Of a stretch of DNA of 24,000 nt, positions 4,045-22,737 are shown piece by piece. This stretch comes from an uncultured Bacteroidales bacterium (lineage in GTDB: Bacteria > Bacteroidota > Bacteroidia > Bacteroidales > UBA932): positions 40,519-64,518 of the forward strand of contig ONEF01000015.1 in the NCBI GenBank assembly GCA_900316795.1, given 5' to 3'. The translations under genes and the position numbers were made by a program. The notes below the pieces were generated by a model. The model had not been told where the DNA came from and ran no database searches. It saw only the letters and a list, made by a program, of their open reading frames with translations. How positions within the stretch are numbered: the first letter of the stretch is position 1; each line of letters opens with the position of its first letter.

Positions 4045-4141
4045 AACAAATTATTAATGGTAACACGGGTATATGTACCCTAATCGGTGCAATTTACAAA
4101 AAATCTCGCTATGTGCGTAACTCTTTTTGCGGCAATGCTAT

Positions 4142-4149
4142 TATCTTTG
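4142..4149 (+). promoter_or_regulatory. Candidate Bacteroides-type -7 promoter box (TATCTTTG) for recG
   Basis: Exact match to the published Bacteroides -7 consensus TAnnTTTG, 25 nt upstream of the ATG at 4174. It lies downstream of the GTG at 4087 used by the ORF track. Confidence 0.4.
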
Positions 4150-4173
4150 CAATGGAGCATCATCGCTGAGACT

Positions 4174-6354
4174 ATGACAGATATCCTTGACACCGACATA
4201 AAATACCTTCCCGGAATAGGACCTAAAAGAGCAGAGCTGCTTTCCAAGGAGATTGGAGTGCATACGTTCAGGGATATGCTTTACTATTTCCCTTTCCGAT
4301 GGATAGACAAGAGCAAGGTTTATCCGATTTCCAGCATCGCAGGAGACGATATGCCTGATGGTGAAGACACCCCTTCTTCTTCCTATGTCCAGGTAAGGGG
4401 GATAGTCACAAAGAAAGAAACCGCAGGTATGACCGGCGGAAGGGTTGCCAGAGGCAAGAGCCGCCTGATTGTCACCTTGCAGGATGCCACAGCAAGTATC
4501 GAGATGGTGTTTTTCAGCGGCTTGAAGTGGATCAACGAAAAACTGGAACAAGGTCAGGAATACATAGCCTTCGGAAAGCCTACCGTATTCAACGGGCATG
4601 TGAATCTTGTGCATCCTGAAGTTTACCGCCCCTCGGAAGCAGCCACTTACGGAACTGGATCAATGGCAGGCATTTACTCCATAACAGAAAGGATGAAGAA
4701 CGGAGGGTTCGGCATAAAGGCCATAACCAAAGTGGAAAGTGTCCTGCTGGAGAAGGTAAAGGGTCACATCAAGGAGACTCTTCCTCCCGGCATCATCCGT
4801 GACAAAGGACTCTGCTCCTTGGAAACAGCGCTTGTGAACATCCATTTCCCTTCCGGACAGAGAGAACTTGAAGAAGCCCAGAGAAGACTGAAGTTTGAAG
4901 AGCTGTTCTACCTGCAGCTCAGCCTGCTGAAGCAGAAAAACGCCAGGCTTTCCAAAGGCACAGGCATAATGATGACCAGGGTCGGAGACAATTTCAACCG
5001 TTGCTATCAGTCTCTGCCATACCCGCTTACAAATGCGCAGAAGCGGGTAATTAAGGAGATGAGGGAAGATATGCGGAGCGGAAAGCAGATGAACCGCCTC
5101 CTGCAGGGAGATGTCGGATCCGGCAAAACCCTGGTTGCGGTCCTGCTCTCGCTGATTGCTGTTGACAACGGCTACCAGGCCTGCATAATGGCCCCTACGG
5201 AAGTTCTTGCCAACCAGCATCTTGCCAGCATATCCAAGTTTCTCAAAGCCACGGATGCCAAAGTGGCTCTTCTTACCGGAAGCACAAAGGCAAAGGACAG
5301 GAAGCAGATTCTCAGCGACCTTTCCGACGGCACCATAAACATCATAGTGGGAACCCACGCCTTGATTGAAGACAGGGTGAAGTTCCACTCCCTGGGACTG
5401 GCAATCATTGATGAACAGCACCGCTTCGGAGTTGACCAGAGAAGCCGCCTGTGGAGCAAGAACGACGACTCCCTGGGGCAAACCCCTCTTCTTCCGCACA
5501 TAATGGTAATGACTGCCACCCCTATCCCAAGGACTTTAGCCATGACGCTGTACGGAGACCTGGATGTCAGCATCATAGACGAACTGCCTCCAGGCAGGAC
5601 ACCGGTTGTCACCCAGCATGCCTGGGAGAGCCAGAGAAGGCAGGTTTTCGATTTCATGAAAGCGCAGATAGATTCAGGGCGACAGGTCTTTGTGGTTTAT
5701 CCTCTGATAAAGGAAAGCGAAAAGATGGACTACGAGAATCTGGAAGAAGGATATTTGCGCATCGTGGAGGAGTTCAAGGCCCCTGAATACATAACTGCCG
5801 TGGTACACGGCAAGATGAAACCGGAAGACAAAGACATAGACATGCAGCTGTTCGCGTCCGGCAGAGCTGACATCCTTGTAGCTACCAGCGTCATAGAAGT
5901 TGGTGTTGATGTGCCTAACGCTTCCGTGATGGTCATAGAGAGCGCAGAGAGATTCGGCCTCAGCCAACTTCACCAGCTCCGCGGAAGGGTTGGAAGAGGA
6001 GCGGCAAAGAGCTACTGCATCCTGATGAGCGGATACAAGTTGAGCAAAGAAAGCCGGAAACGTCTGGAACTGATGTGCAAGACCACCGACGGGTTCCTGC
6101 TTGCTGAAGAAGACATGAAGATGAGAGGCCCTGGAGATCTGGAAGGCACATCCCAAAGCGGCCTGGCCATTGACCTGCATATTTCCTCCCTTTATCGCGA
6201 TGGAAGGTACCTTGAATCCGCCCGCCGGACCGCCCTGGATATTCTGGATAAGGACCCTCTCCTGCAATCAGCTGAGAACCACCTGTTGACTGAGCAGCTC
6301 AGGATTTTGCGCAAAGAAGGAAAAGACGTCAAAGACTACTCTTCAATCAGCTGA
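4174..6354 (+). CDS. recG: ATP-dependent DNA helicase RecG
   Basis: Wedge-domain N-terminal region followed by SF2 motifs GDVGSGKT, DEQHRFG, TATPIPRTL and QLRGRVGRG. I moved the start to ATG 4174 (MTDILDTDIKYLPG...). The 29 upstream codons are hydrophobic non-RecG sequence and contain the candidate promoter. Confidence 0.93.
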   Translation: MTDILDTDIKYLPGIGPKRAELLSKEIGVHTFRDMLYYFPFRWIDKSKVYPISSIAGDDMPDGEDTPSSSYVQVRGIVTKKETAGMTGGRVARGKSRLIVTLQDATASIEMVFFSGLKWINEKLEQGQEYIAFGKPTVFNGHVNLVHPEVYRPSEAATYGTGSMAGIYSITERMKNGGFGIKAITKVESVLLEKVKGHIKETLPPGIIRDKGLCSLETALVNIHFPSGQRELEEAQRRLKFEELFYLQLSLLKQKNARLSKGTGIMMTRVGDNFNRCYQSLPYPLTNAQKRVIKEMREDMRSGKQMNRLLQGDVGSGKTLVAVLLSLIAVDNGYQACIMAPTEVLANQHLASISKFLKATDAKVALLTGSTKAKDRKQILSDLSDGTINIIVGTHALIEDRVKFHSLGLAIIDEQHRFGVDQRSRLWSKNDDSLGQTPLLPHIMVMTATPIPRTLAMTLYGDLDVSIIDELPPGRTPVVTQHAWESQRRQVFDFMKAQIDSGRQVFVVYPLIKESEKMDYENLEEGYLRIVEEFKAPEYITAVVHGKMKPEDKDIDMQLFASGRADILVATSVIEVGVDVPNASVMVIESAERFGLSQLHQLRGRVGRGAAKSYCILMSGYKLSKESRKRLELMCKTTDGFLLAEEDMKMRGPGDLEGTSQSGLAIDLHISSLYRDGRYLESARRTALDILDKDPLLQSAENHLLTEQLRILRKEGKDVKDYSSIS

Positions 6355-7074: not shown

Positions 7075-8195
7075 TGGACCCAACCGTCAGCATGGATTCC
7101 CACTGCCAGGCAATAATCCAGGAATTCAGAGACAACCTTCCCGTTTTCAAGAAAGTCAGTTTTGAGATCAAAGACCTTCTTGAAAAGATGATTTCAGGCT
7201 GCGGCAAGGTTCATACAAATCTTGAAAACCAGCTCAAGGCCAAAGATCTGACGGGAGCCGGCATTCACGTGGCTTCCATTGAGTCAAGGGTAAAGGCAGA
7301 AGAGTCCCTTGCCGGTAAACTGGAACGCAAAGGCAATAAATACAAGTCTTTGGCAGACATCACGGACATCATCGGCCTGAGGGTGATAACCTTCTACATA
7401 GATGACGTGGACAAGGTGGCATCCGCCATTGAAAAGCTGTTTGAGATAGACTGGGAAAACTCCGTGGACAAGAGAAAGCTGCACCAGATAGACAGTTTCG
7501 GTTACCTCTCACTGCATTATATCTGCAAACTTCAAGACTTCCCGTACAGATTTGAGATCCAGTTGCGTACAGTTCTCCAGCATGCCTGGGCCAACATGGA
7601 TCACGATACGGGCTACAAGTCAGGGGTGGAGATACCGATGCAATACAGGAGAGCCATGAACCGTCTGGCTGGAATGCTGGAATTAATTGACGATGAGTTC
7701 AGCAAGATGCGTTCAGAGCTGACTGATTACAGAAGGAGCGTCCACAATCTGGTAGCATCCGGAAAACTGGACGAAGTCCCTCTTGACGGAGACACTTTCA
7801 GGAGTTATCTGGAACTCAAGCCTTTCGACAATCTCAACCGCCGGATAGCGTCCATGAACCAAGCTGAGATCCAGTCGGTCTCACTGATGAACTATCTGGC
7901 TATTTTCAAGGGATTGGGTTGCAAGACACTCGGAGACATAGACAAAATCATAAAGAAGTATTTTGAAGCAGCATACCAGATAGCCTGTTACCAGCTTGGG
8001 CTTACGGACCTTGACGTCATATCAGCTTCCCTGGGGCCTCAGAATCTCTGCATCGCCTACGTGTTGAAGAACGACGGCGGGAAGGCTGGTGTGCGGTACC
8101 TTTATGAACTGATTAACGGAACTTCCAACGGCAGCGAAATATGGGCCGAAATGATTATGGACCAAGCCCGCGATCTTCCTTTCATGAACAAGTAG
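7074..8195 (+). CDS. RelA/SpoT-domain small alarmone synthetase (SAS) with an unassigned C-terminal domain of about 170 aa
   Basis: 373 aa with all five synthetase blocks visible: SRVKAEESLAGKLERK, DIIGLRVITFY, FGYLSLHY, EIQLRTVLQHAWA and HDTGYK. I cannot assign residues from about 205 to 373 to any family. Confidence 0.85.
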   Translation: MDPTVSMDSHCQAIIQEFRDNLPVFKKVSFEIKDLLEKMISGCGKVHTNLENQLKAKDLTGAGIHVASIESRVKAEESLAGKLERKGNKYKSLADITDIIGLRVITFYIDDVDKVASAIEKLFEIDWENSVDKRKLHQIDSFGYLSLHYICKLQDFPYRFEIQLRTVLQHAWANMDHDTGYKSGVEIPMQYRRAMNRLAGMLELIDDEFSKMRSELTDYRRSVHNLVASGKLDEVPLDGDTFRSYLELKPFDNLNRRIASMNQAEIQSVSLMNYLAIFKGLGCKTLGDIDKIIKKYFEAAYQIACYQLGLTDLDVISASLGPQNLCIAYVLKNDGGKAGVRYLYELINGTSNGSEIWAEMIMDQARDLPFMNK

Positions 8196-13087: not shown

Positions 13088-13900
13088 ATGAACATTGTTT
13101 TATTTGCACCCAATTCCTTAAAAGCATCGCTGAGAACCTTTACGGCAGCTATGATGGCTGCACTTGCCTTGACTTCCTGCAGCAAGAGCGAGAAGAACAT
13201 TCCGGTTGAACAGATTGAGATACGGCCCAACAGCATAGAAATGTTCAAGGACCAGAGCATTTCCGTAAACATAACCACTTTGCCTGAAAACGCCACCAAC
13301 GCTTCTGACCTCCAAGTAACTACCGGTACACCAGCCGTGGCCTCATACGAAAACGGCAAGGTAACAGGCGTATCTGCCGGAAGCACCACCCTAACTGCCA
13401 TCTGCGGAGCCGTAAAGCAGACCGCCACCATAAAGGTCTATTGGACAATGTCCAGGAACGGAACCTCCCGCCCTATCAAACAGACCTCCGGCTTCAAGTA
13501 CTTCATGGGCTCATCACAAGTTGACTCCTACGATGTGGACTTCTCTGACGGCTCAGAGCATTTCAGAATATGGATACCAGCCAAACTTCTGGGCAAGACC
13601 ATAGACATCTCCAAGCCTCTTCCTGCGCTTACAGAAGACTGGGATTCCTGCTTCCTGAATTACAGAAGCAACGACTACCAAAACGACTGCACCATCTTCA
13701 TGCAGGCAGATTCCAATCCTATAATCAGAAACAGCGACTGGGACATACTCCCGCTGAATCCTTCAGGCACATTCTCACTTAACCTGATCCCGTCCAAAGG
13801 CTATGTGGCAGACATAGACATCAGGCTCAGCAACGGCCACACCTGGAAGCTCCACTACGAAGGCCCCATAGCCACAGAAGAACGGGGAGAAAAGAGCTAA
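13088..13900 (+). CDS. Lipoprotein with a bacterial Ig-like (Big_2-type) domain; function unknown
   Basis: 270 aa. The signal peptide ends in lipobox LTSC. The stretch IRPNSIEMFKDQSISVNITTLPENA...GKVTGVSAGSTTLTAICG...ATIKV has the Big_2 pattern. Confidence 0.7.
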   Translation: MNIVLFAPNSLKASLRTFTAAMMAALALTSCSKSEKNIPVEQIEIRPNSIEMFKDQSISVNITTLPENATNASDLQVTTGTPAVASYENGKVTGVSAGSTTLTAICGAVKQTATIKVYWTMSRNGTSRPIKQTSGFKYFMGSSQVDSYDVDFSDGSEHFRIWIPAKLLGKTIDISKPLPALTEDWDSCFLNYRSNDYQNDCTIFMQADSNPIIRNSDWDILPLNPSGTFSLNLIPSKGYVADIDIRLSNGHTWKLHYEGPIATEERGEKS

Positions 13901-13904
13901 TCCT

Positions 13905-13960
13905 CCCGCACAATCCTGGAATTGTAAAAAAATAAAGCAGTTTTTTAATGAATGTCTTGC
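13905..13960. repeat. Repeat copy A (partial, right half only)
   Basis: cccgcACAATCCTGGAATTGTAAAAAAAtaaagcagttttttAATGAATGTCTTGC. The core is shared with copies B and C. The AATGAATGTCTTGC extension is shared only with copy C. It starts 5 nt after the lipoprotein stop codon. Confidence 0.85.
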
Positions 13961-13975
13961 AGAATACAATCCATT

Positions 13976-14545
13976 TCATACCTTTGCATCAGACAATGGC
14001 GGCTGAGGATATATCTGGGGATCGTGCCCAGAGGAAGATTCCCCGGCCGCTTTATTATACAGCACCTTTTCTATCTTCCCACTGCCCAGTTTTGATATAT
14101 CGCGACCAAAGACCGTCGAAATATTAGACACCAATATATTTCGCCCTATACTATTGACATTCAAGCCAACACAAATATTCTTATCTTTAATGATTGCCGA
14201 TGTATAGACCCTAAAACTTCTGCCACTTCCACCATAACTGCATATCGCCAGTGGTTCATTGATTACTTCCATTATCTCTAACCACAACTCCTCAGAAATA
14301 CTATGAAACGCATCCTTTGAATGTCTCTTTTCAGATATAACTCTTCTGTTAGCCGTTATGGCACCGTACATTCCATATTTATTCAGAATCTTACCTGTTA
14401 CCCCTATTTTGAAATAAGCCAAAGGAAGTTTCTCTCCCCTTTTCTTTTTCTGTATAAGCTCAATAAAACCAGCAAGATCAGATCCATTTCTCTTGTCATA
14501 CTCTTGTATCTTCCTGCCTATTGGAATAAAAACTTCCATACCCAT
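13976..14545 (-). CDS. Hypothetical 189-aa protein; weak resemblance to phage/conjugative-element Barnase-EndoU-ColicinE5/D-RelE-like (PBECR) nuclease modules
   Basis: Uninterrupted ORF in an AT-rich segment with its own copy of the repeat-borne promoter. The pattern SEKRHSKDAFHSISEELWLEIMEVINEPLAI...FRVYT...ICVGLNVN...VSNISTVFGRD recalls PBECR-type domains (KRH..H, then helix, then beta-strands). This is recalled from memory and not verified. Confidence 0.5.
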   Translation of the reverse strand: MGMEVFIPIGRKIQEYDKRNGSDLAGFIELIQKKKRGEKLPLAYFKIGVTGKILNKYGMYGAITANRRVISEKRHSKDAFHSISEELWLEIMEVINEPLAICSYGGSGRSFRVYTSAIIKDKNICVGLNVNSIGRNILVSNISTVFGRDISKLGSGKIEKVLYNKAAGESSSGHDPQIYPQPPLSDAKV

Positions 14546-14562
14546 CTACAACTAGAAAGGTA

Positions 14563-14644
14563 CAAAGCTACACCCAAAACCTACTCAGCACCAAGCCAAA
14601 CGGTAAAAATAACCCCGCACAATCCTGGAATTGTAAAAAAATGA
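14563..14644. repeat. Repeat copy B (left half plus core), carrying a minus-strand promoter for 13976-14545
   Basis: caaagctacaccc...agccaaacggtaaaaataaccccgcACAATCCTGGAATTGTAAAAAAAtga aligns along its length with copy C. On the minus strand it reads TAGCTTTG (TAnnTTTG) 17 nt before ATG 14545, with TTTG motifs upstream. Confidence 0.85.
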
Positions 14645-14670
14645 GGGGAATATAGTCAAACTTCTGACTT

Positions 14671-14706
14671 CCTCAAGATCAAAGGTTTCCTCAAGATCAA
14701 AGGCTT
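14671..14706. repeat. Direct tandem repeat, 2 x 18 bp
   Basis: CCTCAAGATCAAAGGTTT then CCTCAAGATCAAAGGCTT, head to tail, between the small-gene fragment and repeat copy B. Confidence 0.9.
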
Positions 14707-14723
14707 CCCAAAAGCGCCATCGC

Positions 14724-14765
14724 CTACTTGTACTTCTGGAAGTTATACTTTTCTCTCAGCGATGC
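14724..14765 (-). pseudogene. Duplicated 3' fragment (last 13 codons plus stop) of the small Cys-rich gene at 16086-16277
   Basis: 14723-14765 is identical to 16085-16127 (43 bp) and encodes ASLREKYNFQKYK*. Similarity continues with 2 mismatches into the 9 bp past the stop (14714-14722 vs 16076-16084). There is no start codon and no upstream coding sequence. Confidence 0.8.
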
Positions 14766-14778
14766 TGTAACACGCCCG

Positions 14779-15789
14779 TCACTTTTTGAGCTTCATCCTG
14801 ATCTGCCCCACCTCATCGGCCAACTGGACAGAAGACGGCAGATACAGCTCGTAACGGCTCGCCATAATTGTTTTGTTATCTGCCGGCAATGCCATTTTTA
14901 CTACAGTATCATTCTTGCTGGAACACAGCAGTATACCTATAGTCGGATTCTCTTCCTCCAGTTTCTCGCACCTGTCGTAATAGTTTACATACATCTGCAA
15001 CTGCCCCAAATCCTGGTGTGTGAGTTTTCCCGTCTTTAATTCCACAACCACAAAACACCTCAACAATCTGTTATACAATACCAGATCAACAAAGAACTCG
15101 TCATCCTCAAGCATTATACGCCTCTGGCGGGCAACAAACGAAAAACCTTTTCCCATTTCCAGCAAAAACTCGGTCAGATGGTCTATTATCGCACTCTCCA
15201 GATCTTTTTCATAGTACGATGGCCTTCTTTCCAACCCCAAAAACTCAAGCATCATCGGGTCTTTAATGACTTCTTGAGGGTTCTCCGGTATTCTATCACG
15301 TCTGGCGACAGCAAGAACAGACTCTTTGTCATTGCTTATAAGAAGTCTTTCATACAAGCCTGAGTAAATCTGGCGTTCAAGTTCCCTGCTGTTCCATCCA
15401 TTGTTCACTGCCTCAAGTTCGTAATACTCTCGTTTATCTTCATTGGGAATCGCTATAAGTAACTTATACTGAGTCCAATTCAATTGTGAACGCAGTGCGT
15501 GCACAATTGGATAAGTAATGAAAAACTGTCTACATAAATTCAGTTGCCTCACCCCAAATCCACTCCCATATTCCGGCTCAAGCCGCTCCGCCAACCTTTT
15601 TATCAGATAGCTCCCGTACTCGGCCCTGGCCTTCCCATGTTGCTCTTCCTCAAATATCCTGCGCCCGATATTCCAGTACATCTGAACACGGCTGAAGTTC
15701 ACGCTCCTGACGGCCCCTTCTCTAGCCTTGTCTATAATTCCCTTTATCTCCCCGATAAAACCTTCTTTCACAATCTTAAACTCATCCAT
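14779..15789 (-). CDS. DUF1016/YhcG-family PD-(D/E)XK nuclease domain protein
   Basis: 336 aa. The N-terminal part (RVQMYWNIGRRIFEEEQHGKARAEYGSYLIKRLAERL, GFGVRQLNLCRQFF) and the C-terminal nuclease core (FVDLVLYNRLLRCFVVVELKTGKLTHQDLGQLQMYVNYY) match my recollection of the family. Confidence 0.85.
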   Translation of the reverse strand: MDEFKIVKEGFIGEIKGIIDKAREGAVRSVNFSRVQMYWNIGRRIFEEEQHGKARAEYGSYLIKRLAERLEPEYGSGFGVRQLNLCRQFFITYPIVHALRSQLNWTQYKLLIAIPNEDKREYYELEAVNNGWNSRELERQIYSGLYERLLISNDKESVLAVARRDRIPENPQEVIKDPMMLEFLGLERRPSYYEKDLESAIIDHLTEFLLEMGKGFSFVARQRRIMLEDDEFFVDLVLYNRLLRCFVVVELKTGKLTHQDLGQLQMYVNYYDRCEKLEEENPTIGILLCSSKNDTVVKMALPADNKTIMASRYELYLPSSVQLADEVGQIRMKLKK

Positions 15790-15813
15790 AATACAGTGTC
15801 TCTAAATCCCCAT

Positions 15814-15919
15814 CAAAGCTACACCACACAAACACCCCAAACAAGCCAAATGGTAAAATTGACCCTGTACAATCCTGGAATTGTAAAAAAATGAATCAGT
15901 TTTTAAATGAATGTCTTGC
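15814..15919. repeat. Repeat copy C (full length), carrying a minus-strand promoter for 14779-15789
   Basis: It contains both the left half shared with B and the right half shared with A. The minus strand reads TAGCTTTG 24 nt before ATG 15789. Confidence 0.85.
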
Positions 15920-15985
15920 TACTGCCGAGTGCTGAATCTCGGCGATGGCGCCTTGCAAACAACAACTGGCTATCAGCAGATCCCC

Positions 15986-16020
15986 AAAAGCACCCCATAA
16001 AAAAGGCAGGGTGCTTTTTC
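15986..16020. terminator. Candidate bidirectional terminator downstream of the small Cys-rich gene
   Basis: AAAAGCACCC-cataaaaaaggca-GGGTGCTTTTT. A 7-bp stem is flanked by A and T runs, 66 nt past the minus-strand stop at 16086. Confidence 0.45.
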
Positions 16021-16085
16021 TCAGGCATACTGACATTCAACTACTTACAAAGCACCATCGCCGATTAAAGTGCAAACACCATCAC

Positions 16086-16277
16086 CTACTTGTACTTCTG
16101 GAAGTTATACTTTTCTCTCAGCGATGCCTTCACATCTTCATTCTGGTGCCTGAAATACCCCTTCCATCCCGGGCAGAAATTGATATGCCATCTCCAGAAC
16201 CTTCCTATCAGAGACTTAGGGTTCTTGTCATACCTTGCCCTGAACGGACATGTCTCACAACGATACTTCTTTGCCAT
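16086..16277 (-). CDS. Small Cys/His-containing basic protein (63 aa), function unknown
   Basis: ORF MAKKYRCETCPFRARYDKNPKSLIGRFWRWHINFCPGWKGYFRHQNEDVKASLREKYNFQKYK with CxxC...H..FC, a possible metal site. Its 3' end is duplicated at 14724-14765, and a terminator-like hairpin lies downstream. Confidence 0.55.
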   Translation of the reverse strand: MAKKYRCETCPFRARYDKNPKSLIGRFWRWHINFCPGWKGYFRHQNEDVKASLREKYNFQKYK

Positions 16278-16296
16278 AATTATATATTAAACAAAT

Positions 16297-16452
16297 CTAT
16301 CCAAGCACCACATCCAGCACCATCATCAGGGCAAACCCAAGCATCAGCTTCTGCATCCAGGCAGAAATCTCCTTTTTCAGGCAAAACACGAACCCTGCCC
16401 CCCCTACAGTTCCTGCCAGTGGTATCATCAATGCTGTCAGAATCTCTTTCAT
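16297..16452 (-). CDS. 51-aa hydrophobic ORF not in the supplied track; possibly a 5' fragment of a ZIP-family metal transporter
   Basis: My translation is MKEILTALMIPLAGTVGGAGFVFCLKKEISAWMQKLMLGFALMMVLDVVLG*. The pattern G.G...VF..KK.(8-10 aa).LGFA.G.M resembles the N-terminus of ZupT/GufA-type transporters. A TATATTTG -7 box (minus strand, 16460-16467) precedes it. Confidence 0.35.
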   Translation of the reverse strand: MKEILTALMIPLAGTVGGAGFVFCLKKEISAWMQKLMLGFALMMVLDVVLG

Positions 16453-16523: not shown

Positions 16524-17303
16524 ATGGAAAATCTAACATCTATCGGTATTTCAGTGCTAGTCCTGGCTATTATTGTAATAGCTGTCACGTGGGCTATAAG
16601 AGGTATTGACTGGAAACTGATATTTAAACCCAAAGGAGAACGTGGAGAGTATTATGTCTCAAAACTGCTGAACCAGCTTCCAGAAGATCAATACCGCATC
16701 CTCAACGATATCACGATTCCAGGCAAATACAAAACATCGCAGATAGACCATATTGTCGTATCCATATATGGCATCTTTGTCATTGAAACAAAGTACTATA
16801 AGGGTTGGATTTTCGGTACTGAAGACAGTGAATACTGGACTCAGAACATATACGGATACAAGTATAGGCTGTACAATCCTATCCGCCAAAACAAAAGCCA
16901 TATCCTGGCATTGAAAAAAGCCCTTCCTGAACTTGAAGGCCTGCCTATTTTCTCAATCATAGCCTTCTCTTCTCAAGCACAGTTAGACAACAGGATTCCT
17001 TGCAGTTATGTTATTTACTGGGGCGATATTCTCCCCGCTATTACAAGCAGAAAACAAATCTCTCTTACCCAGGAGCAAGTTTCTTATCTCAGCGACAAAA
17101 TCTTATCGATTCGGCTAGATCCCGAACTAGCAAAATCCCGGCACATTAGCCAAGTCTACATAACCAAGTTTGTGAAGAATAGTAAGATACAATCTGGCAT
17201 TTGCCCTCGATGCGGAGGCAAGCTAGTCCTTAGGCATGGCAAATATGGCTCTTTCTACGGATGTTCAAACTATCCGTATTGCAAGTTCACGCTCGATACT
17301 TAA
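16524..17303 (+). CDS. Membrane-anchored NERD-domain protein with a C-terminal topoisomerase-type C4 zinc ribbon
   Basis: 259 aa taken from the internal ATG of the 452-aa track ORF. The TM helix is SIGISVLVLAIIVIAVTWAI. The NERD pattern is GERGEYYVSKLL...YRILNDITIP...SQIDHIVVSIYGIFVIETKYYKGWIFG. The Zn ribbon is CPRCGGKLVLRHGKYGSFYGCSNYPYCKFT. Confidence 0.85.
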   Translation: MENLTSIGISVLVLAIIVIAVTWAIRGIDWKLIFKPKGERGEYYVSKLLNQLPEDQYRILNDITIPGKYKTSQIDHIVVSIYGIFVIETKYYKGWIFGTEDSEYWTQNIYGYKYRLYNPIRQNKSHILALKKALPELEGLPIFSIIAFSSQAQLDNRIPCSYVIYWGDILPAITSRKQISLTQEQVSYLSDKILSIRLDPELAKSRHISQVYITKFVKNSKIQSGICPRCGGKLVLRHGKYGSFYGCSNYPYCKFTLDT

Positions 17304-17794
17304 TTATCGACGTTCTCAAGATTTGATTTACAACTAGATGTAGTTTCTTCTTGGCCTCCATACTCCTCACCGCTAATTCCCATGTCTTTGTTCTCAATAG
17401 AATCAGATTCTAACTCTTTAATAATCATTGGAAGCAATATCTCATCAGCTGGTAGCCAATTAACGCTATAGATATCATTGATTTCAAGCCATCTAGCCGC
17501 TTCGTGTTCATTTAGATGAATAGCTTCTGCCGCTAATGAACACATATAACAATGCATAATTAAATGAAACTTCGGATAATCCCACTCGACTGTATGTAGA
17601 AATTTATCTATGAGTATCTCAGTAGATAACTCTTCTCTAATCTCTCTTATTAGAGCGTCTTCGGGAGTCTCACCGAGTTCCATCTTTCCGCCAGGGAATT
17701 CCCACCAGTCTTTAAAATCACCATAACCACGCTGAGTGGCAAAAATCTCATTGTCTTTTCTAATAATTGCAGCAACTACTTCTATTGTTTTCAT
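17300..17794 (-). CDS. Nudix hydrolase (MutT/NudG-like (d)NTP pyrophosphohydrolase) with an acidic C-terminal tail
   Basis: 164 aa with an intact Nudix box GGKMELGETPEDALIREIREEL. The N-terminus VVAAIIRKDNEIFATQRG is typical of the MutT-like clade. The start overlaps the upstream helicase stop (ATGA at 17791-17794), and the stop overlaps the NERD gene stop. Confidence 0.9.
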   Translation of the reverse strand: MKTIEVVAAIIRKDNEIFATQRGYGDFKDWWEFPGGKMELGETPEDALIREIREELSTEILIDKFLHTVEWDYPKFHLIMHCYMCSLAAEAIHLNEHEAARWLEINDIYSVNWLPADEILLPMIIKELESDSIENKDMGISGEEYGGQEETTSSCKSNLENVDN

Positions 17795-20730
17795 AAAGAT
17801 TGTTCTGTTAAATATTCGTAAAGATTGCTTTCGACAGGGGTATCAAGCCTATAACCAATTTCGACAGCCGTCACGTTCTCTGTGTCATTCATTACAAATT
17901 GTTGCAAATAGCCATTATGTCTCATCGTACCAAGAAAATAAAATTCTTTAGACGTTTGATCATCCTTATTCTTCCTAACAAAAAGAGGCATTAAAATACC
18001 CCGTTCTTCACTATGGATAGCATTTTGAACATCATCAGAATCAATAGTACGCCTACTCTTTGAAATGGCTGTCAAAGAAGAAGGATCATTAAAACGGTCT
18101 TCATATCTTGTTGTAGCTGTAATATCTTCTTCTTTCTCATAATTGATAAAGACAGGATATGTTCTTGAATATGAATCGTATTTATAACCACCAATATTTA
18201 AAGAAACTTCTTCTTTCTTCCAGTTTAGAAGCCAACATACTTCCGAATAAGTATATTTCTTATAAAGTTTAAATTGAGTCCCAGCATAGCTATTCGAATA
18301 ATCTCTTTTATAACGGTAAATACCAAAATCCAACAACTCTTTAACAGCCTCATAAAAAGCTCTATTTTTAAGCGCATTTTGGAATACTTCAGAAAGCACA
18401 AAGCCATGACTTGTTGAATGAGCTAACTCAATCTTAAATCTTTCTCCACGGAAGAAGCAACCAGAAAGAACAGAAATAACACTTGCACGTACGCTACTAT
18501 CTAATTTTAAGCCATATTGCTTTTCTAATAGTGTCTCCCATAAATCAGTCAACTCAGGCTTTTCTAATAAGAATCGTAAAAGGGTTAACTCATGTATTCT
18601 CATTCCGGGAGCGAGCTTGCGGGAAATGAATTCAAGAATTTTATATTGATCTTCAGACCATTTTTCTGTAAAATCATCCTCATAATCCTTTAGAAAGGCC
18701 TGATATGAGCCCTTCTTATCTATAAGACGAAGAGGATCCAATTCTCCCATTTCATCAAACTCTTTTAAATGAGGAATTCTACCAAGTTTATATTTAAGTG
18801 ACTGATACTCTTTTCTTAGCAATTTTATTTGATTAAGATCAGCCGTATCTATAGATTTATAAATCCTATCTCTTGAAATTTCGTCAAAATAAATAGTAGA
18901 CGCTCCTCTTATAATATTATTGCCCTCCATTATTGATCGGCGAATATTATCCTTATTCCCCGTTCTATCTCCGGATAGAGCTATAGGAATCATGTAGTTA
19001 GTCTGATAATTACCAATAAAATCAAGGACTATTACGAACTCCTTCCCCTCGGCTTTTCTAAGTCCTCGACCCAACTGTTGAACAAAGATTATTGGTGATT
19101 CTGTCGGACGAAGAAGAATAACCTGATTAATTTCAGGAACATCAACGCCTTCATTAAAAATATCAACAGTAAATATATAATCTAACTTGTCTTGACGTGA
19201 ATCTGAAACCAAACGGTCTATTGCATTTTCTCTATCTTGCTGAGAGTCATCCCCAGAAAGCATAATTGTATTATAACGTCCAGTTGCATTAAACTTATTA
19301 CTAAGCTCTCTAGCTTCTTCCTTACGACTACAAAAGATTAGCCCCTTTACCCTATCACCACTATATCCATAATATTCAGCTCTTTCAATAATATATTTAA
19401 CCCTTTTGTCTGAAGTAAGATGACGGAATCGAGATAAGTCACTTATATTCTCACCCTCAATTTCTAAATCCGTTATTCCAAAGTAATGAAATGGACAAAG
19501 CATATCATTTTCCAAAGCTTGTTGAAGACGAACTTCACAAGCAATATTATGATCAAACAATTTAAAGACATCAAAGCTGTCCGTTCTTTCAGGAGATGCA
19601 GACATCCCTAAAAGCAATTCAGGGTGAAAATACCTAATTATCTTTTGGTAGCTCTCAGCTCCACTTCTATGGCATTCATCTAAAACAATTACAGAATAAT
19701 CATTTGGACTAAACTGTTCTCGGATACTGTCTTTTGCCATCATATTCATGGTAGAGAACAAAAAGGTGGATGCTCTCGCTTTATAAAGGTCATTATTTGT
19801 TCCACTAAGAAGTTCCATCTTAACATTCGCACCAAAAATACGCCTATAGCTTTTAAGAGCTTGTCTATTAATTTGTTCTCTATGAGAAAGAAATAGAGCT
19901 TTTTTACCTTTAAGAATATTATCGGCAAACAGCTTTCTAATAGCAAATGCAGAGGCATATGTTTTACCAGTACCAGTAGCTGATATTAATAATGCCCTCT
20001 TTCCTCCAGAATGAATAATTTCTTCAATGTTATATATAAAAGTCTCTTGCATTGAATTAGGTTGCAGAACTTGAGAATAGCCAAGGTCTAAGGTTCTTGT
20101 AAGCTTTGATAAGTCTTCTCTCTCAATACGGCTATTCTCATAAAGTCTTGAATATTCATCTCTGTATTCTATGTAAGATACAGATGAGTTCCAAAGATCA
20201 TTAAACTCAGACTCTATATCTTTAGCAAAAGCCCCTGCAGAAGAGGAAACTAACCTCGTATTCCACTCATGATTTTTTGTAATTGCATCCTGTGTCAAAT
20301 TTGAACTACCAACAATGATACGGATATCGTCTCCATTATGAAACATATATCCCTTTGTATGGAATCCTATATTATTCTCTCCTGTTTTAAAAACTCGAAC
20401 ATCTAAATTTGTCAGAGATGATAGCTTATCCAGTGCCTTAGGATCGCTGAACATAAGATAATCAGTTGTAAGAATGCGCCCCTTAGTTCCCTGCTTTTCT
20501 AAATCTTTAAGAGTCCCAAGTAAAGGAGCAATTCCACCCATTGTAATAAATGCAACACTTATAAACCAATCATCGCATCCCTTAAGTTCTTTTTCAATAG
20601 CAGTTAATACCTTTTTTCCATGAGAATTAGAGAGTAAGCTTGGTGAATAAGTAGGATCTGATTCACGAGTAGCATCAATGAATGCTTTGTGATATCCATC
20701 GACTAATTTACGTATAGATAGCTTTTCCAT
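17791..20730 (-). CDS. PLD-family nuclease / SF2 helicase / DUF3427 fusion protein (SauUSI-like, putative type IV modification-dependent restriction enzyme)
   Basis: 979 aa. The N-terminal HKD motif is HTKGYMFHNGD...IVGSSNLT. The helicase motifs are SATGTGKTY (I), VLDECHR (II), MSASPER (III) and QQLGRGLRK (VI). The C-terminal ~200 aa (YTYSEVCWLLNWKKEE...YPVFINYEKEEDI...YEDRF...FVRKNKDD...EFYFLG) resemble DUF3427 as I recall it. Confidence 0.85.
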   Translation of the reverse strand: MEKLSIRKLVDGYHKAFIDATRESDPTYSPSLLSNSHGKKVLTAIEKELKGCDDWFISVAFITMGGIAPLLGTLKDLEKQGTKGRILTTDYLMFSDPKALDKLSSLTNLDVRVFKTGENNIGFHTKGYMFHNGDDIRIIVGSSNLTQDAITKNHEWNTRLVSSSAGAFAKDIESEFNDLWNSSVSYIEYRDEYSRLYENSRIEREDLSKLTRTLDLGYSQVLQPNSMQETFIYNIEEIIHSGGKRALLISATGTGKTYASAFAIRKLFADNILKGKKALFLSHREQINRQALKSYRRIFGANVKMELLSGTNNDLYKARASTFLFSTMNMMAKDSIREQFSPNDYSVIVLDECHRSGAESYQKIIRYFHPELLLGMSASPERTDSFDVFKLFDHNIACEVRLQQALENDMLCPFHYFGITDLEIEGENISDLSRFRHLTSDKRVKYIIERAEYYGYSGDRVKGLIFCSRKEEARELSNKFNATGRYNTIMLSGDDSQQDRENAIDRLVSDSRQDKLDYIFTVDIFNEGVDVPEINQVILLRPTESPIIFVQQLGRGLRKAEGKEFVIVLDFIGNYQTNYMIPIALSGDRTGNKDNIRRSIMEGNNIIRGASTIYFDEISRDRIYKSIDTADLNQIKLLRKEYQSLKYKLGRIPHLKEFDEMGELDPLRLIDKKGSYQAFLKDYEDDFTEKWSEDQYKILEFISRKLAPGMRIHELTLLRFLLEKPELTDLWETLLEKQYGLKLDSSVRASVISVLSGCFFRGERFKIELAHSTSHGFVLSEVFQNALKNRAFYEAVKELLDFGIYRYKRDYSNSYAGTQFKLYKKYTYSEVCWLLNWKKEEVSLNIGGYKYDSYSRTYPVFINYEKEEDITATTRYEDRFNDPSSLTAISKSRRTIDSDDVQNAIHSEERGILMPLFVRKNKDDQTSKEFYFLGTMRHNGYLQQFVMNDTENVTAVEIGYRLDTPVESNLYEYLTEQSL

Positions 20731-20764
20731 GCTTAGGATCTCAGTTTATATTGACTTCCGTAAA

Positions 20765-20772
20765 CAAAAATA
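20765..20772 (-). promoter_or_regulatory. Candidate -7 box (TATTTTTG on the minus strand) for the helicase-Nudix operon
   Basis: Exact TAnnTTTG match 34 nt upstream of ATG 20730 on the minus strand. Confidence 0.35.
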
Positions 20773-21027
20773 CGAAAAATGAGAGACTTGAAAAATAGTT
20801 TCGTTTAATAAGAAGCTGCCAGAGAAGTCTGATATCGTACTTCAGCAGTGTGAAGAAGGCAAGGGCCGAGAAAAAAAGCCAGGGACAAGTATTTCAGTCA
20901 GGAAATCAAGGCAAAGTATAGTCGCTGAGAATCGCAGAAAAGAGCCCATTTTGCGTCAAAAAAGCAAAAACTATAGGGCGGACAAGGTAAAATGTACTTA
21001 TTTGCTTGCAAAACTCCCAATCATCGA

Positions 21028-21074
21028 ATTATCTTTCCTTCCGGCCAAAGATAATCTTAACTAAATAGTTAAGA
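21028..21074. promoter_or_regulatory. Two adjacent inverted repeats upstream of the small ORFs and HTH gene (candidate operator or RNA hairpins)
   Basis: ATTATCTTT (21028-21036) pairs with AAAGATAAT (21047-21055), a perfect 9-bp stem with a 10-nt loop. It is immediately followed by TCTTAACT-aaat-AGTTAAGA (21055-21074), a perfect 8-bp palindrome arm pair. Confidence 0.3.
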
Positions 21075-21359
21075 ATTTGCTTTGATGGAAAGGAATTATT
21101 TAATAAAATTGTATTCAGAAAACTGTATGACAAAAGTTGAGTTTACACCTTACATCCTAAGAGAAACAGCTGATATCTATTCTTTTAGGATTGAAGGGGA
21201 ATGGAGGTATTAAGAGAACAAGGACTTACCAAGAAGATAAATGGCTAAAAGAATGTGTGGAAACTCTTCAAAAGATAGATAAAGAGTTGATGGATTTGGA
21301 AGAATGCGGTGTCGTACTGGAAGACAAAATAATGAACATTAATCTGGAATTATAGCTAT

Positions 21360-21677
21360 ATGGCCACCAAGTATGTAGATCCATTATTTGCCGAAATTCT
21401 AAAAGGCATTCCACCGCAAACTTCATATGAAGTAGGTTATTCCTATGACATAGCGACGGTTTTGCACAATGTCCTTGAAAGAAAAGGGTGGAGCCAAGTT
21501 GAGTTTGCCAGAAGACTCGGTAAGAAAGAATCTGAAATATCCAAGTGGCTTAGCGGAGTACATCCTTTCACAATGAAAACTATGGCAAAGATTTCAGCGG
21601 CCATCAACGATGACTTTCTGTGCCTTGTTTCAGATTACAGGAAAAAATTGAGGAGAAAAGCTGCTAAGCGTTTCTGA
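21360..21677 (+). CDS. XRE-family helix-turn-helix transcriptional regulator (possible antitoxin or island regulator)
   Basis: 105 aa with HTH_3 pattern LERKGWSQVEFARRLGKKESEISKWLSGVHPFTMKTMAKISAAI and a basic C-terminal tail. The 3' end overlaps the convergent glycosylase gene by 14 nt. Confidence 0.85.
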   Translation: MATKYVDPLFAEILKGIPPQTSYEVGYSYDIATVLHNVLERKGWSQVEFARRLGKKESEISKWLSGVHPFTMKTMAKISAAINDDFLCLVSDYRKKLRRKAAKRF

Positions 21678-22737
21678 AACGGGTGTAAACCTGCCAGGCG
21701 TGCTGGAGGGGCTCCGGATAGGTTTTTGTGGAGCTGCTATGTTTGGCAACGGGTGTGGACGGAATGAAGAATTCCGCCTGAAGCTCCGGTTTGAACGGTG
21801 TCCAGTTGCCGCAGATTATGCCGTCGCGGGCTATGACAGGCTGGAAGATGCCGCTGTTGTTGTGGGCCTTGTGGCGGTATTCAGGGGGAAGGACAACATC
21901 ACGGCTCTTGTAGCCGATCAGATATTCGTCGTATGGAGGAATCAGAAGAAACTTGCCGCTGCGGAAGCCTCTGGTGCGGCAGTCATCGGTGAGGAAAAAG
22001 TCACGGCCATTCCATCTCTCTTTGCGGATATAGTCTTTCTGGAGTTCTATTCCCCTTCTGCAGTCGCTGATGTTCAGGCCGGACCACCACACAAAATCCT
22101 CCAGGGTGGCAGGCTGTCGGCTACGGAAGTATTTGCGGGTGAGCATCATAAGTGCCTCATCCCGGTCAGTTCTGCCTGGGCGTGGACCAGCTTTTTTTGA
22201 AGCAAGAGCGTATGTGGCTTTCATCGGCAGAAGGTCTCCGCTGCAAAGAGTTCCTGTAAATTCCGCCATACGGATATGGTATGAAAGCCTGTGGTCATCC
22301 AGAGTTATGCCCCTGTCCACCAGTGCCTTGACAAAGTCATCCTTGGTGGCGCTGCCTTTGTCCTGGGCTGTTTGGGCCAGGATGTCACCAATGCGCCTGT
22401 ATTCTTTTTCTGTAATCACGATGCCGTTGCTGCTCATCCAGCCATTGGTTACGGAAATGGCTCTTGGGGAGAACAGATCCAGCATCCACCAGTAATCTTG
22501 TGCAGATACAAGCTGCCAGGTGCCTCTGAGAAGGTGCAGGCGGATGATGCTCCCGCTGTCAAAAGCATCCTTGAATGCCTTGGCGGAAGGTTTTTTGGTG
22601 CGCATGGCCACAGCCCAGCGCATCATACGGTATTCCTGTGCCTGAACGGCGCATAAATGGCGTACAACCTCAGCGGGAGTATTGAACTGAGGGGCTGCAA
22701 GCTGCTGGCTTAGAAGACGAATAACTACAGGGTTCAT
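21664..22737 (-). CDS. Winged-helix DNA glycosylase of the AlkZ/YcaQ (HTH_42, DUF1006) family
   Basis: 357 aa. The N-terminal LLSQQLAAPQF.TPAEVVRHLCAVQAQEYRMMRWAVAMR and the later RGTWQLV, YDEYLIGY and CGNW blocks fit the family. The catalytic-motif position reads Q-A-Q. Confidence 0.8.
   Translation of the reverse strand: MNPVVIRLLSQQLAAPQFNTPAEVVRHLCAVQAQEYRMMRWAVAMRTKKPSAKAFKDAFDSGSIIRLHLLRGTWQLVSAQDYWWMLDLFSPRAISVTNGWMSSNGIVITEKEYRRIGDILAQTAQDKGSATKDDFVKALVDRGITLDDHRLSYHIRMAEFTGTLCSGDLLPMKATYALASKKAGPRPGRTDRDEALMMLTRKYFRSRQPATLEDFVWWSGLNISDCRRGIELQKDYIRKERWNGRDFFLTDDCRTRGFRSGKFLLIPPYDEYLIGYKSRDVVLPPEYRHKAHNNSGIFQPVIARDGIICGNWTPFKPELQAEFFIPSTPVAKHSSSTKTYPEPLQHAWQVYTRFRNA

Follow-up and report, generated by a model that had tools for sequence, protein, structure and literature searches.

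A promoter-like repeat module frames exchangeable defence-type genes at a cassette-like locus of rumen Bacteroidales

How can defence-type genes be exchanged at a chromosomal site beside which no recombinase is found? This question is raised by a locus in a 24,000-nt stretch of DNA from an uncultured rumen Bacteroidales bacterium (the window, by which we mean this whole stretch), where three copies of a repeat of up to ~100 nt lie around a gene for a DUF1016 nuclease and a gene for a rare 189-aa protein. To our knowledge, the movement and expression of single-gene defence systems in Bacteroidales are poorly understood; conjugative elements, invertible promoters and the arrays named rAID-1 are known routes for such genes. 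A sequence-only reading of the window had proposed that the repeat is a portable promoter behind which cargo genes were serially inserted or exchanged. In order to follow up this proposal, we compared the locus with ~70 metagenome loci (labelled L0xx), all compared sequences being from metagenome assemblies; gene orders are written in minus-strand orientation. The comparison indicated that the locus is real and cassette-like, that it is neither an integron or CALIN (a cluster of attC sites lacking an integrase) nor a rAID-1 array, and that the proposal of a portable promoter with exchangeable cargo is partly supported, holding at the level of the pattern.

A promoter-like module in three copies around two cargo genes

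The 23-nt core of the repeat, ACAATCCTGGAATTGTAAAAAAA, was found exactly three times in the window, at plus-strand positions 13910, 14619 and 15869, in agreement with the three copies described before. No further match was present in the window at up to 3 mismatches, and none appeared in 100 shuffled sequences (0 expected). Two copies, both on the minus strand, are full promoter modules. Repeat B (14563–14644; 78 bits with model R1) is composed of a -7 box TAGCTTTG (14570–14563), a -33-like CTTG (14595–14592), a palindrome (14634–14619) and a T-run (14641–14635), and repeat C (15814–15919; 75.5 bits) contains the same parts at 15821–15814, 15845–15842, 15884–15869 and 15891–15885, followed by an upstream block at 15892–15919. 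Repeat A (13905–13932, minus strand) is a truncated end copy with the T-run, the palindrome ACAATTCCAGGATTGT and GCGGG, lacking the promoter part. Alignment of the flanks bore out the sharing reported between B and C (~82 nt at 81–83% identity) and between A and C (91% across 56 nt). Because copy C carries, upstream of its core, 28 nt of the 3' flank of the 189-aa gene (13933–13960, minus strand), the array is terminally redundant; a homologous flank also lies 3' of the 189-aa homolog in L068.

The anatomy of the module was derived from an alignment of 11 copies. Toward the cargo, it runs from an A/T block through the T-run (in L068, TTTCCGG stands in its place), the palindrome and the block NNNGGGT(A/C)AAWTTTACC to the promoter boxes and a terminal CGGGA. 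The palindrome has the consensus AC(A/G)ATTCCAG(G/A)AT(T/C)GT, with 5-bp arms around a 6-nt centre, and its symmetry was held in 96% of the alignment cells, including one compensatory change and three G-T intermediates, which are weak evidence. Single-strand folding of the repeats was no better than that of shuffled sequence (z = 0.2 to 1.2), no inverted repeats were found at the ends of the promoter repeat, and an Rfam search returned nothing for repeats or for the hairpin described below, either at the gathering threshold or at E <= 1. An intrinsic terminator was considered for the core and rejected, as the T-run stands before the 5-bp stem when read with the cargo, and what follows the stem on the opposite strand is an A-run.

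The promoter boxes read (T/C)TTG, a gap of 20–21 nt and then GTAG(A/C)TTTG, with the palindrome ~60–70 nt upstream of the -7 box. For Bacteroides promoters, a -33 TTTG at a spacing of 19–21 nt was reportedly described by Bayley and colleagues in 2000. By sequence, the module agrees with the sigma-ABfr type of promoter in both boxes. The Bacteroides -7 consensus is TAnnTTTG (PMC4747536). On the minus strand, the distance from TAGCTTTG to the ATG is 17 nt for the 189-aa open reading frame (ORF) and 24 nt for DUF1016, precisely as given in the sequence-only reading. We counted 12 copies of the module in at least four lineages: the -7 box (TAGCTTTG or TAGATTTG) was kept in all nine gene-facing copies, including the palindrome-less copy of L061 in lineage 3, and was lacking in both truncated end copies (A and copy 3 of L068) and in the recombinant copy of L009. 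The truncated copies break off 5 nt (A, where likeness to B and C stops) and 19 nt (L068) past the palindrome, both retaining the core, and the switch from shared module to cargo-specific sequence comes 0, 4 or ~20 nt after the -7 box. The ~100-nt repeats thus read as extended promoter modules of the Bacteroides type, with predicted promoter activity. Their core most likely binds a putative protein, for which a regulator is the conservative guess, and we infer that the palindrome is the site at which this putative regulator would bind.

The first cargo gene (14779–15789, minus strand) encodes a DUF1016/YhcG nuclease of the PD-(D/E)XK type (Pfam YhcG_C, E = 1.4e-58; PADLOC PDC-S02, E = 1.8e-138) and is, according to its PADLOC assignment, a candidate defence gene; the PDC-S candidates are presumably single-gene systems. 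The second (13976–14545, minus strand) encodes the 189-aa protein, which gave a weak match to MuF_C (Pfam, E = 6.9e-07) and no matches in PDB, PHROG, PADLOC or NCBIfam, and whose AlphaFold model (predicted local distance difference test, pLDDT, 52) was too poor for a fold search. Of the two nuclease-type genes previously proposed, DUF1016 was confirmed as such, whereas the 189-aa 'orphan' showed only the weak MuF_C match and no evidence of a nuclease. Its family is very rare, with 5 clusters among 5.8e9 proteins, and in all three lineages of known context the gene lies downstream of DUF1016. Both cargo genes are lower in G+C (0.395 for the 189-aa gene, 0.446 for DUF1016) than core genes (~0.49–0.51). 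Elsewhere, the module was found in front of a RhuM-like gene (PADLOC PDC-S05) and of HigBA, so that, in line with the original proposal, it would carry a promoter to four unrelated cargoes.

A second non-coding element, an inverted-repeat hairpin of ~125 nt with arms TCGGCGATGGYGCYTTG around a terminator-like stem, lies at 15939–16064. Its arms are 85% complementary and its folding energy was -68.9 kcal/mol (z = -5.66). The recurring motif GGCGATGG(C/T)GC, noticed earlier, was recovered at all its reported places, and its copies at 15941 and 16062 proved to be the two arms of this hairpin; a further arm-like GGCGATGG copy lies at 14710–14725 in spacer B, the sequence upstream of repeat B. The hairpin ends read TCGGCGATGG and contain no R-box (GTTRRRY/RYYYAAC). 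Copies or single arms were located 3' of S (the small gene described below), of the RhuM-like gene, of DUF1016, of HigA and of other genes (in lineage 2 and L068), while in the window the hairpin is missing 3' of DUF1016 and 3' of the 189-aa gene. We read this element as a terminator module and a recurrent 3' part of the cassettes, possibly similar to repetitive extragenic palindromic (REP) elements or miniature inverted-repeat transposable elements (MITEs). A scan of viral contigs for the hairpin arm gave 0 matches. Further copies were seen in L041 (~4055–4171 and ~6164–6280), L045 (~6205–6321) and L068 (~7760–7872); at least three lineages have the hairpin between convergent genes, and the gene abutting its arm differs by strain.

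Cargo and copy number differ between strains and lineages

Lineage 1 is the lineage of the window, and several of its contigs that have the identical DUF1016 protein are arranged differently. In all lineage-1 strains, the array adjoins a Big_2 lipoprotein gene (13088–13900, plus strand; Pfam Big_2, E = 1e-07), which forms the conserved right-hand boundary. With X denoting strain-specific upstream genes, S1 and S2 two alleles of the small gene and Zip' a shortened zinc-transporter gene, four contigs (L034, L037, L039 and L043) had the order X – S1 – hairpin – repeat C – DUF1016 – Zip' – S2 – spacer B – repeat B – 189 – repeat A – lipoprotein, and three (L036, L038 and L048) had X – S1 – hairpin – repeat C – DUF1016 – full Zip – S2 remnant – 189 remnant – repeat A – lipoprotein. 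Depending on the strain, X consisted of AIPR and an SLFN-type helicase, of RhuM, of NgoFVII restriction-modification with Z1, or of NERD with BACON. In L009, the lipoprotein gene is followed by one core with the left flank of A and the right flank of B, then by spacer B and the 3' end of S; this single core, joining the two flanks, indicates that the 709-bp unit of the 189-aa gene is absent exactly between two cores. The arrangement of the window itself was identical in more than 20 independently assembled contigs, and the three-repeat layout is therefore not an assembly artefact.

A scan of Joint Genome Institute (JGI) metagenomes for the core yielded 11 loci, of which five were lineage 1 at the same locus, three (L041, L045 and L047) a second lineage at a different locus, and three marine. 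The marine matches (L040, L044 and L049, from JGI/TARA) all fell in one unrelated coding sequence and were set aside as chance matches. Lineage 2 has the order htpG – hairpin – RhuM-like PDC-S05 gene or DUF1016 – promoter repeat – DUF4919: at the same DUF4919/htpG site and between homologous flanks, L047 and L067 carry DUF1016 and L041 and L045 the RhuM-like gene, the swapped segment spanning from 4 nt past the -7 box to the hairpin arm. L045 additionally contains a DUF1016 remnant, its tail, a repeat, HigB and HigA, and a hairpin arm. Downstream of DUF4919, a TIGR04076-family gene was intact in L045 (8152–8451) and carried a ~190-nt internal deletion in L041 (~5990–6160), L067 and L047. These swaps, together with the absence of the 189-aa unit in L009, substantiate the prediction that cargo differs between strains at one site.

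The order rep – DUF1016 – hairpin – rep – 189 homolog – truncated rep – htpG was found in L068 (metagenome-assembled genome GCA_016295295.1), and L069 and L070 show DUF1016 tail – rep – 189 homolog. In lineage 3 (L061, syntenic with the window), DUF1016 retains the promoter part of the module and the palindrome is degenerate; in lineages 2 and 3, DUF1016 and the module also occur without the 189-aa gene. The architecture rep – DUF1016 – rep – 189 – truncated rep is thus common to at least three rumen Bacteroidales lineages and two chromosomal sites. As the lipoprotein and htpG locus types occur independently across metagenomes, we assumed that they belong to separate organisms. Serial insertion was upheld in part: the DUF1016 unit does look inserted into a recipient with small gene, repeat B and 189-aa gene, but the pair with its three repeats, being shared by at least three lineages, is old and no product of recent serial insertion here.

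Within a genome, the copies of the module are closer to each other than to the orthologous copies of other lineages, i.e., they show concerted evolution. In L068, the repeats before DUF1016 and before the 189-aa homolog matched at 30/31 core-block and 49/50 promoter-block positions, and these copies matched those of lineage 1 at 23/31 and 32/50, respectively. Between the lineage-1 copies, 27–29 of 31 core-block positions and 36/49 positions of the promoter parts agreed, indicating that in this lineage only the core was homogenised.

The module is rare. The GTDB representative set, which presumably includes gut Bacteroides carrying rAID-1, gave 0 matches in 185,579 genomes for either the exact core or a loose palindrome-plus-promoter pattern. 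Viral contigs scanned for the core gave 0 matches, BLAST against plasmids and phages returned a weak match to the DUF1016 coding sequence only and none to the module, model R1 detected no extra copy over 266 kb of related loci, and every related match in JGI metagenomes lay at one of the two known loci. Being this rare and confined to one locus per genome, the module is neither a REP-like family nor a widespread system.

The 63-aa Cys-rich gene S (16086–16277, minus strand) records one rearrangement in the window. Alignment with L034 and L043 showed that it is a hybrid allele, its 5' part and the upstream Zip' matching the S2 allele and its 3' part and flank matching S1. Spacer B (14645–14722, minus strand) is the native 3' flank of S2, the same flank standing 3' of the full S2 gene in L034 and L043. 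The reported 43-bp duplicate of the S 3' end was identical by comparison (14723–14765, minus strand, equal to 16085–16127) and lies inside a 61-nt repeat of 90% identity. The tail of DUF1016, which contains ACAGCATCGCTGAG, meets this S remnant within a 13-nt microhomology, GCATCGCTGAGAG (14766–14754), that is native to both join partners and includes the 9-mer TCGCTGAGA (here at 14754–14762, minus strand). The fragment is not a cassette boundary and is better described as a by-product of the join at GCATCGCTGAGAG. Hybrid S and join sequences, like the anatomy and the strain and lineage variants, are direct observations. An att site for an integrase in the S 3' end was rejected, as the fragment starts exactly at the microhomology with the DUF1016 tail, and L034-type strains, which have a full second S copy, also oppose it. 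In spacer B, an 18-nt unit, TTCCTCAAGATCAAAGGY, is in tandem at 14669–14704 and single in L009, L034 and L043.

The S family comprised 491 Bacteroidales homologs at 60–89% identity, and Pfam, PADLOC and other profile searches assigned the protein to no annotated family. In three other species (L015, 8001–8192; L018, 8001–8195; L021, 4755–4943), S homologs close variable defence-type operons, namely type IIG restriction-modification, type I with an SNF2 helicase, and a UvrD/DUF2726 helicase. In lineage 1, the strain-variable island stops ~10 nt upstream of the S start codon.

For the 9-mer TCGCTGAGA, we counted 10 copies in the window where 0.24 would be expected, a ~40-fold excess (plus strand 4163, 8704, 13127 and 20922; minus strand 5318, 9426, 14762, 16124, 16493 and 17095). 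At 14 copies, the octamer TCGCTGAG is the commonest 8-mer of the window and lies on either strand, both inside and outside coding sequence. It was also enriched in lineage 2 (L041 and L045), L068 and L061; three more distantly related loci of Bacteroidales lacked it. At the L034-type join, TCGCTGAG links this DUF1016 tail to sequence upstream of Zip', and a deletion inside the hairpin element of L045, between TCGCTGAGTT and TAGCTGAGTT, is a third join on the octamer. TCGCTGAG is a candidate Chi-like or uptake-like signal. Ordinary deletions accompany these joins. The 51-aa ORF Zip' (16297–16452, minus strand) is the in-frame product of an internal deletion in a ZIP zinc-transporter gene, of which L036 and L038 have the intact 262-aa form, and the endpoints of this deletion are two GGGNTTTGC repeats. 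Three other deletions, in L036, are located at ordinary microhomologies of 4–9 nt; with several such deletions, the array region is decaying.

Competing accounts of how the units move

In our view, the cassette-like behaviour is probably, if by a modest measure, the outcome of general recombination on the repeated modules combined with joins that have homology on one side, rather than that of an integron. Each copy would drive one gene of a small defence-type array, in which a long hairpin often closes the unit, and the repeated modules would serve as portable homology on which host recombination could act without a dedicated recombinase. Recombination between two copies would delete a unit, as in L009; a crossover in the module on one side and in the hairpin or a flanking gene on the other would swap cargo, as for DUF1016 and the RhuM-like gene; and gene conversion would keep intragenomic copies alike. 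Incoming DNA could be added where one end shares homology and the other is joined at a microhomology, as in homology-facilitated illegitimate recombination. For the window, a segment comprising the 3' part of S, the hairpin, repeat C, DUF1016 and its tail would have entered a recipient of the form Zip' – S2 – spacer B – repeat B – 189 – repeat A through a homologous crossover inside S and a join at GCATCGCTGAGAG, leaving the 43-bp duplicate. The end products contain the crossover, the microhomology join and the displaced remnant expected of this process, and hybrid S, microhomology join and retained 43-bp remnant are together explained by one insertion event. Host recombination is favoured over an integron-like process by the lack of a recombinase near the arrays, the lack of an attC-like fold and the variable cargo junctions, and likewise by the conserved order of DUF1016 and the 189-aa gene and by a reconstructable insertion that used S and a microhomology, not the core.

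Several observations weigh against this account. The 23-nt core was 100% identical in all lineage-1 copies and the main lineage-2 copy, at an identity of ~70–80% in the adjoining promoter; general recombination fails to explain a core so far above the promoter part, which points to a putative sequence-specific protein. Core variants are common to all copies within a lineage, as if site and binder co-evolve, the truncated end copies retain the core, and the terminal redundancy of the array could equally stem from a circular or tandem intermediate. Moreover, the recombination pathway is read back from end products, and recombinases were inspected over a flank of ~10 kb per array.

The strong conservation of the core with its lineage-specific variants, its retention in the end copies and the terminal redundancy would be expected if a tyrosine recombinase, encoded at some other place in the genome, acted on the core palindrome in an integron-like or rAID-1-like manner, with circles of promoter, gene and tail excised and inserted at the core. 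Such a process would also suit the clean loss between two cores in L009, the 96% symmetry of the palindrome with its compensatory change, the cyclic order of the array, and the precedent of rAID-1, recombinase-linked arrays with repeated intergenic sequences in Bacteroidales (10.1101/471110). Yet no integrase, recombinase or transposase domain was present among the called genes of the window, as had been noted before, and no recombinase was found within the ~6–10 kb fetched on either side of the array in at least eight related contexts. The repeats lack an attC-like single-strand fold and number 2–3 per genome, the DUF1016-then-189 order is kept across lineages, not shuffled, and the window insertion bypassed the core. 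In addition, cargo junctions lying 0, 4 and ~20 nt after the -7 box and end copies stopping at 5 versus 19 nt do not fit a precise site-specific cassette mechanism. We consider this alternative unlikely, though kept alive by the extreme and lineage-specific conservation of the core, its presence in end copies and the terminal redundancy. A more elaborate form, in which the 28-nt core (T-run, palindrome and GCGGG) is the site of a recombinase encoded elsewhere, the ~2-kb unit of core, promoter, DUF1016 and tail followed by core, promoter, 189-aa gene and tail, or its single cassettes, circularise and integrate at a core, and TCGCTGAG is a second, Chi-like or uptake-like hot spot for joins, appears doubtful; if true, it would represent a new integron-like platform of Bacteroidales in which each cassette brings its own promoter.

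Could the two cargo genes instead form one system, in which DUF1016 and the 189-aa protein cooperate, the repeats are a duplicated co-regulated promoter or operator, and the variants reflect incidental decay at a hot spot? In the three lineages of known context, the gene of the rare 189-aa family immediately follows DUF1016, the palindrome is at a typical operator position, and many ordinary microhomology deletions are found nearby. This explanation is nonetheless rather improbable: lineages 2 and 3 have DUF1016 and the module, and L009 its single core, without the 189-aa gene, the module also heads the RhuM-like gene and HigBA, and PADLOC places DUF1016 among the PDC-S candidates, which we take to be single-gene systems. 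An old immobile local duplication, or a ubiquitous REP- or MITE-like intergenic element unrelated to cargo, is very improbable. Strains with an identical lipoprotein or small protein all keep the same arrangement (a look-up with the peptide deformylase of the window returned only strains identical to the window), and the hairpin with its TCGGCGATGG arms does look REP- or MITE-like. For the promoter repeat, however, this explanation is already contradicted, as distant strains and other lineages vary in cargo and copy number and arrays stand at two different chromosomal loci, so that the locus is not invariant among relatives; nor is the element dispersed or ubiquitous, with 2–3 copies at one locus per genome, 0 GTDB matches, no extra copies in 266 kb and no terminal inverted repeats.

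Known systems, the surrounding island and implications

The closest comparison within the order is rAID-1, whose arrays of up to 31 mostly immunity genes are common in gut Bacteroides, are called integron-like by their authors, and are defined by a 5' XerD-like recombinase with at least 44% identity to BF9343_RS08045 and at least two co-directional downstream genes at a G+C of 41% or lower (Ross et al., 10.1101/471110). Our locus resembles them in its Bacteroidales host, co-oriented accessory genes, repeated intergenic sequences and G+C below that of the core genome, but it differs in having 2–3 units with defence-candidate or toxin-antitoxin cargo in few rumen lineages. It has two co-directional genes, of which the 189-aa gene (0.395) falls below the G+C limit and DUF1016 (0.446) does not, and no Phage_integrase or Xer-type domain, and hence no rAID-1 recombinase, was found in the called genes around the arrays.

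An integron has an IntI-type tyrosine recombinase beside its array, and a CALIN has at least two attC sites and no integrase. The attC site is an imperfect inverted repeat of 57–141 nt at the 3' end of the cassette, which folds as a single strand and bears R''/R' boxes (RYYYAAC/GTTRRRY), and integron cassettes have no promoters of their own, their expression being driven by a common Pc promoter. The locus shares with these systems co-oriented single-gene units, a repeated element and toxin-antitoxin or defence-type cargo, as well as, with CALINs, the lack of an adjacent integrase. In contrast, its repeat lies 5' of the gene, bears a promoter-like module of each unit's own and lacks an attC-like fold, while its 3' hairpin has no GTTRRRY/RYYYAAC boxes and is missing from some units.

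Minimal mobile elements of Neisseria and core defence hotspots hold alternative cassettes between conserved flanks without mobility genes, their exchange being thought to be homologous (PMC3082526, PMC10250203). The replacement of DUF1016 by a RhuM-like gene between DUF4919 and htpG is an exchange of this kind, with the difference that part of the conserved flank is here a portable non-coding promoter module, repeated in the array and found at two loci. In displacement arrays (effector-immunity genes of the Vibrio cholerae type VI secretion system and Rhs C-terminal regions), a homologous upstream anchor with an illegitimate downstream join has been proposed, and, as at our locus, displaced 3' remnants stay and arrays grow without an integrase (PMC5361080). 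Here, by contrast, the anchor would be a 63-aa gene with promoter modules, the cargo consists of defence candidates, and three joins lie on one octamer. Reused or 'putative mobile' promoters and Correia elements place near-identical promoters before non-homologous genes within and between genomes (PMC3575422, PMC2649163); the present module differs in its very few copies, its restriction to a single array in each genome and its truncated end copy, and it has neither the inverted-repeat structure of a transposable element nor the dispersed copies and terminal inverted repeats of REP elements and MITEs. Its distinctive trait is that a low-copy promoter module is repeated within an array and shared across loci and lineages.

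Beside the array, positions 16524–21700 of the window form a strain-variable defence island. It contains a NERD gene with a Zn ribbon (16524–17303, plus strand), a NUDIX gene (17300–17794, minus strand; PADLOC PDC-S07), a PLD-helicase-DUF3427 gene identified by PADLOC as a type IV restriction enzyme (17791–20730, minus strand; G+C 0.345) and a helix-turn-helix gene. At this position, sister strains carry AIPR with an SLFN-type helicase, or RhuM, or NgoFVII with Z1 instead. No tRNA or tmRNA was found as a potential att site.

The locus provides a compact case that can be checked in sequence, in which empty, swapped and newly inserted states occur and PDC-S02, PDC-S05 and HigBA are framed by the same kind of module. 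That joins repeatedly fall on one over-represented octamer hints at a signal for recombination or uptake that is undescribed for this phylum. If host recombination on the modules suffices, cassette behaviour can arise without integron machinery, and the modules could then also serve as handles in the search of rumen metagenomes for new defence genes.

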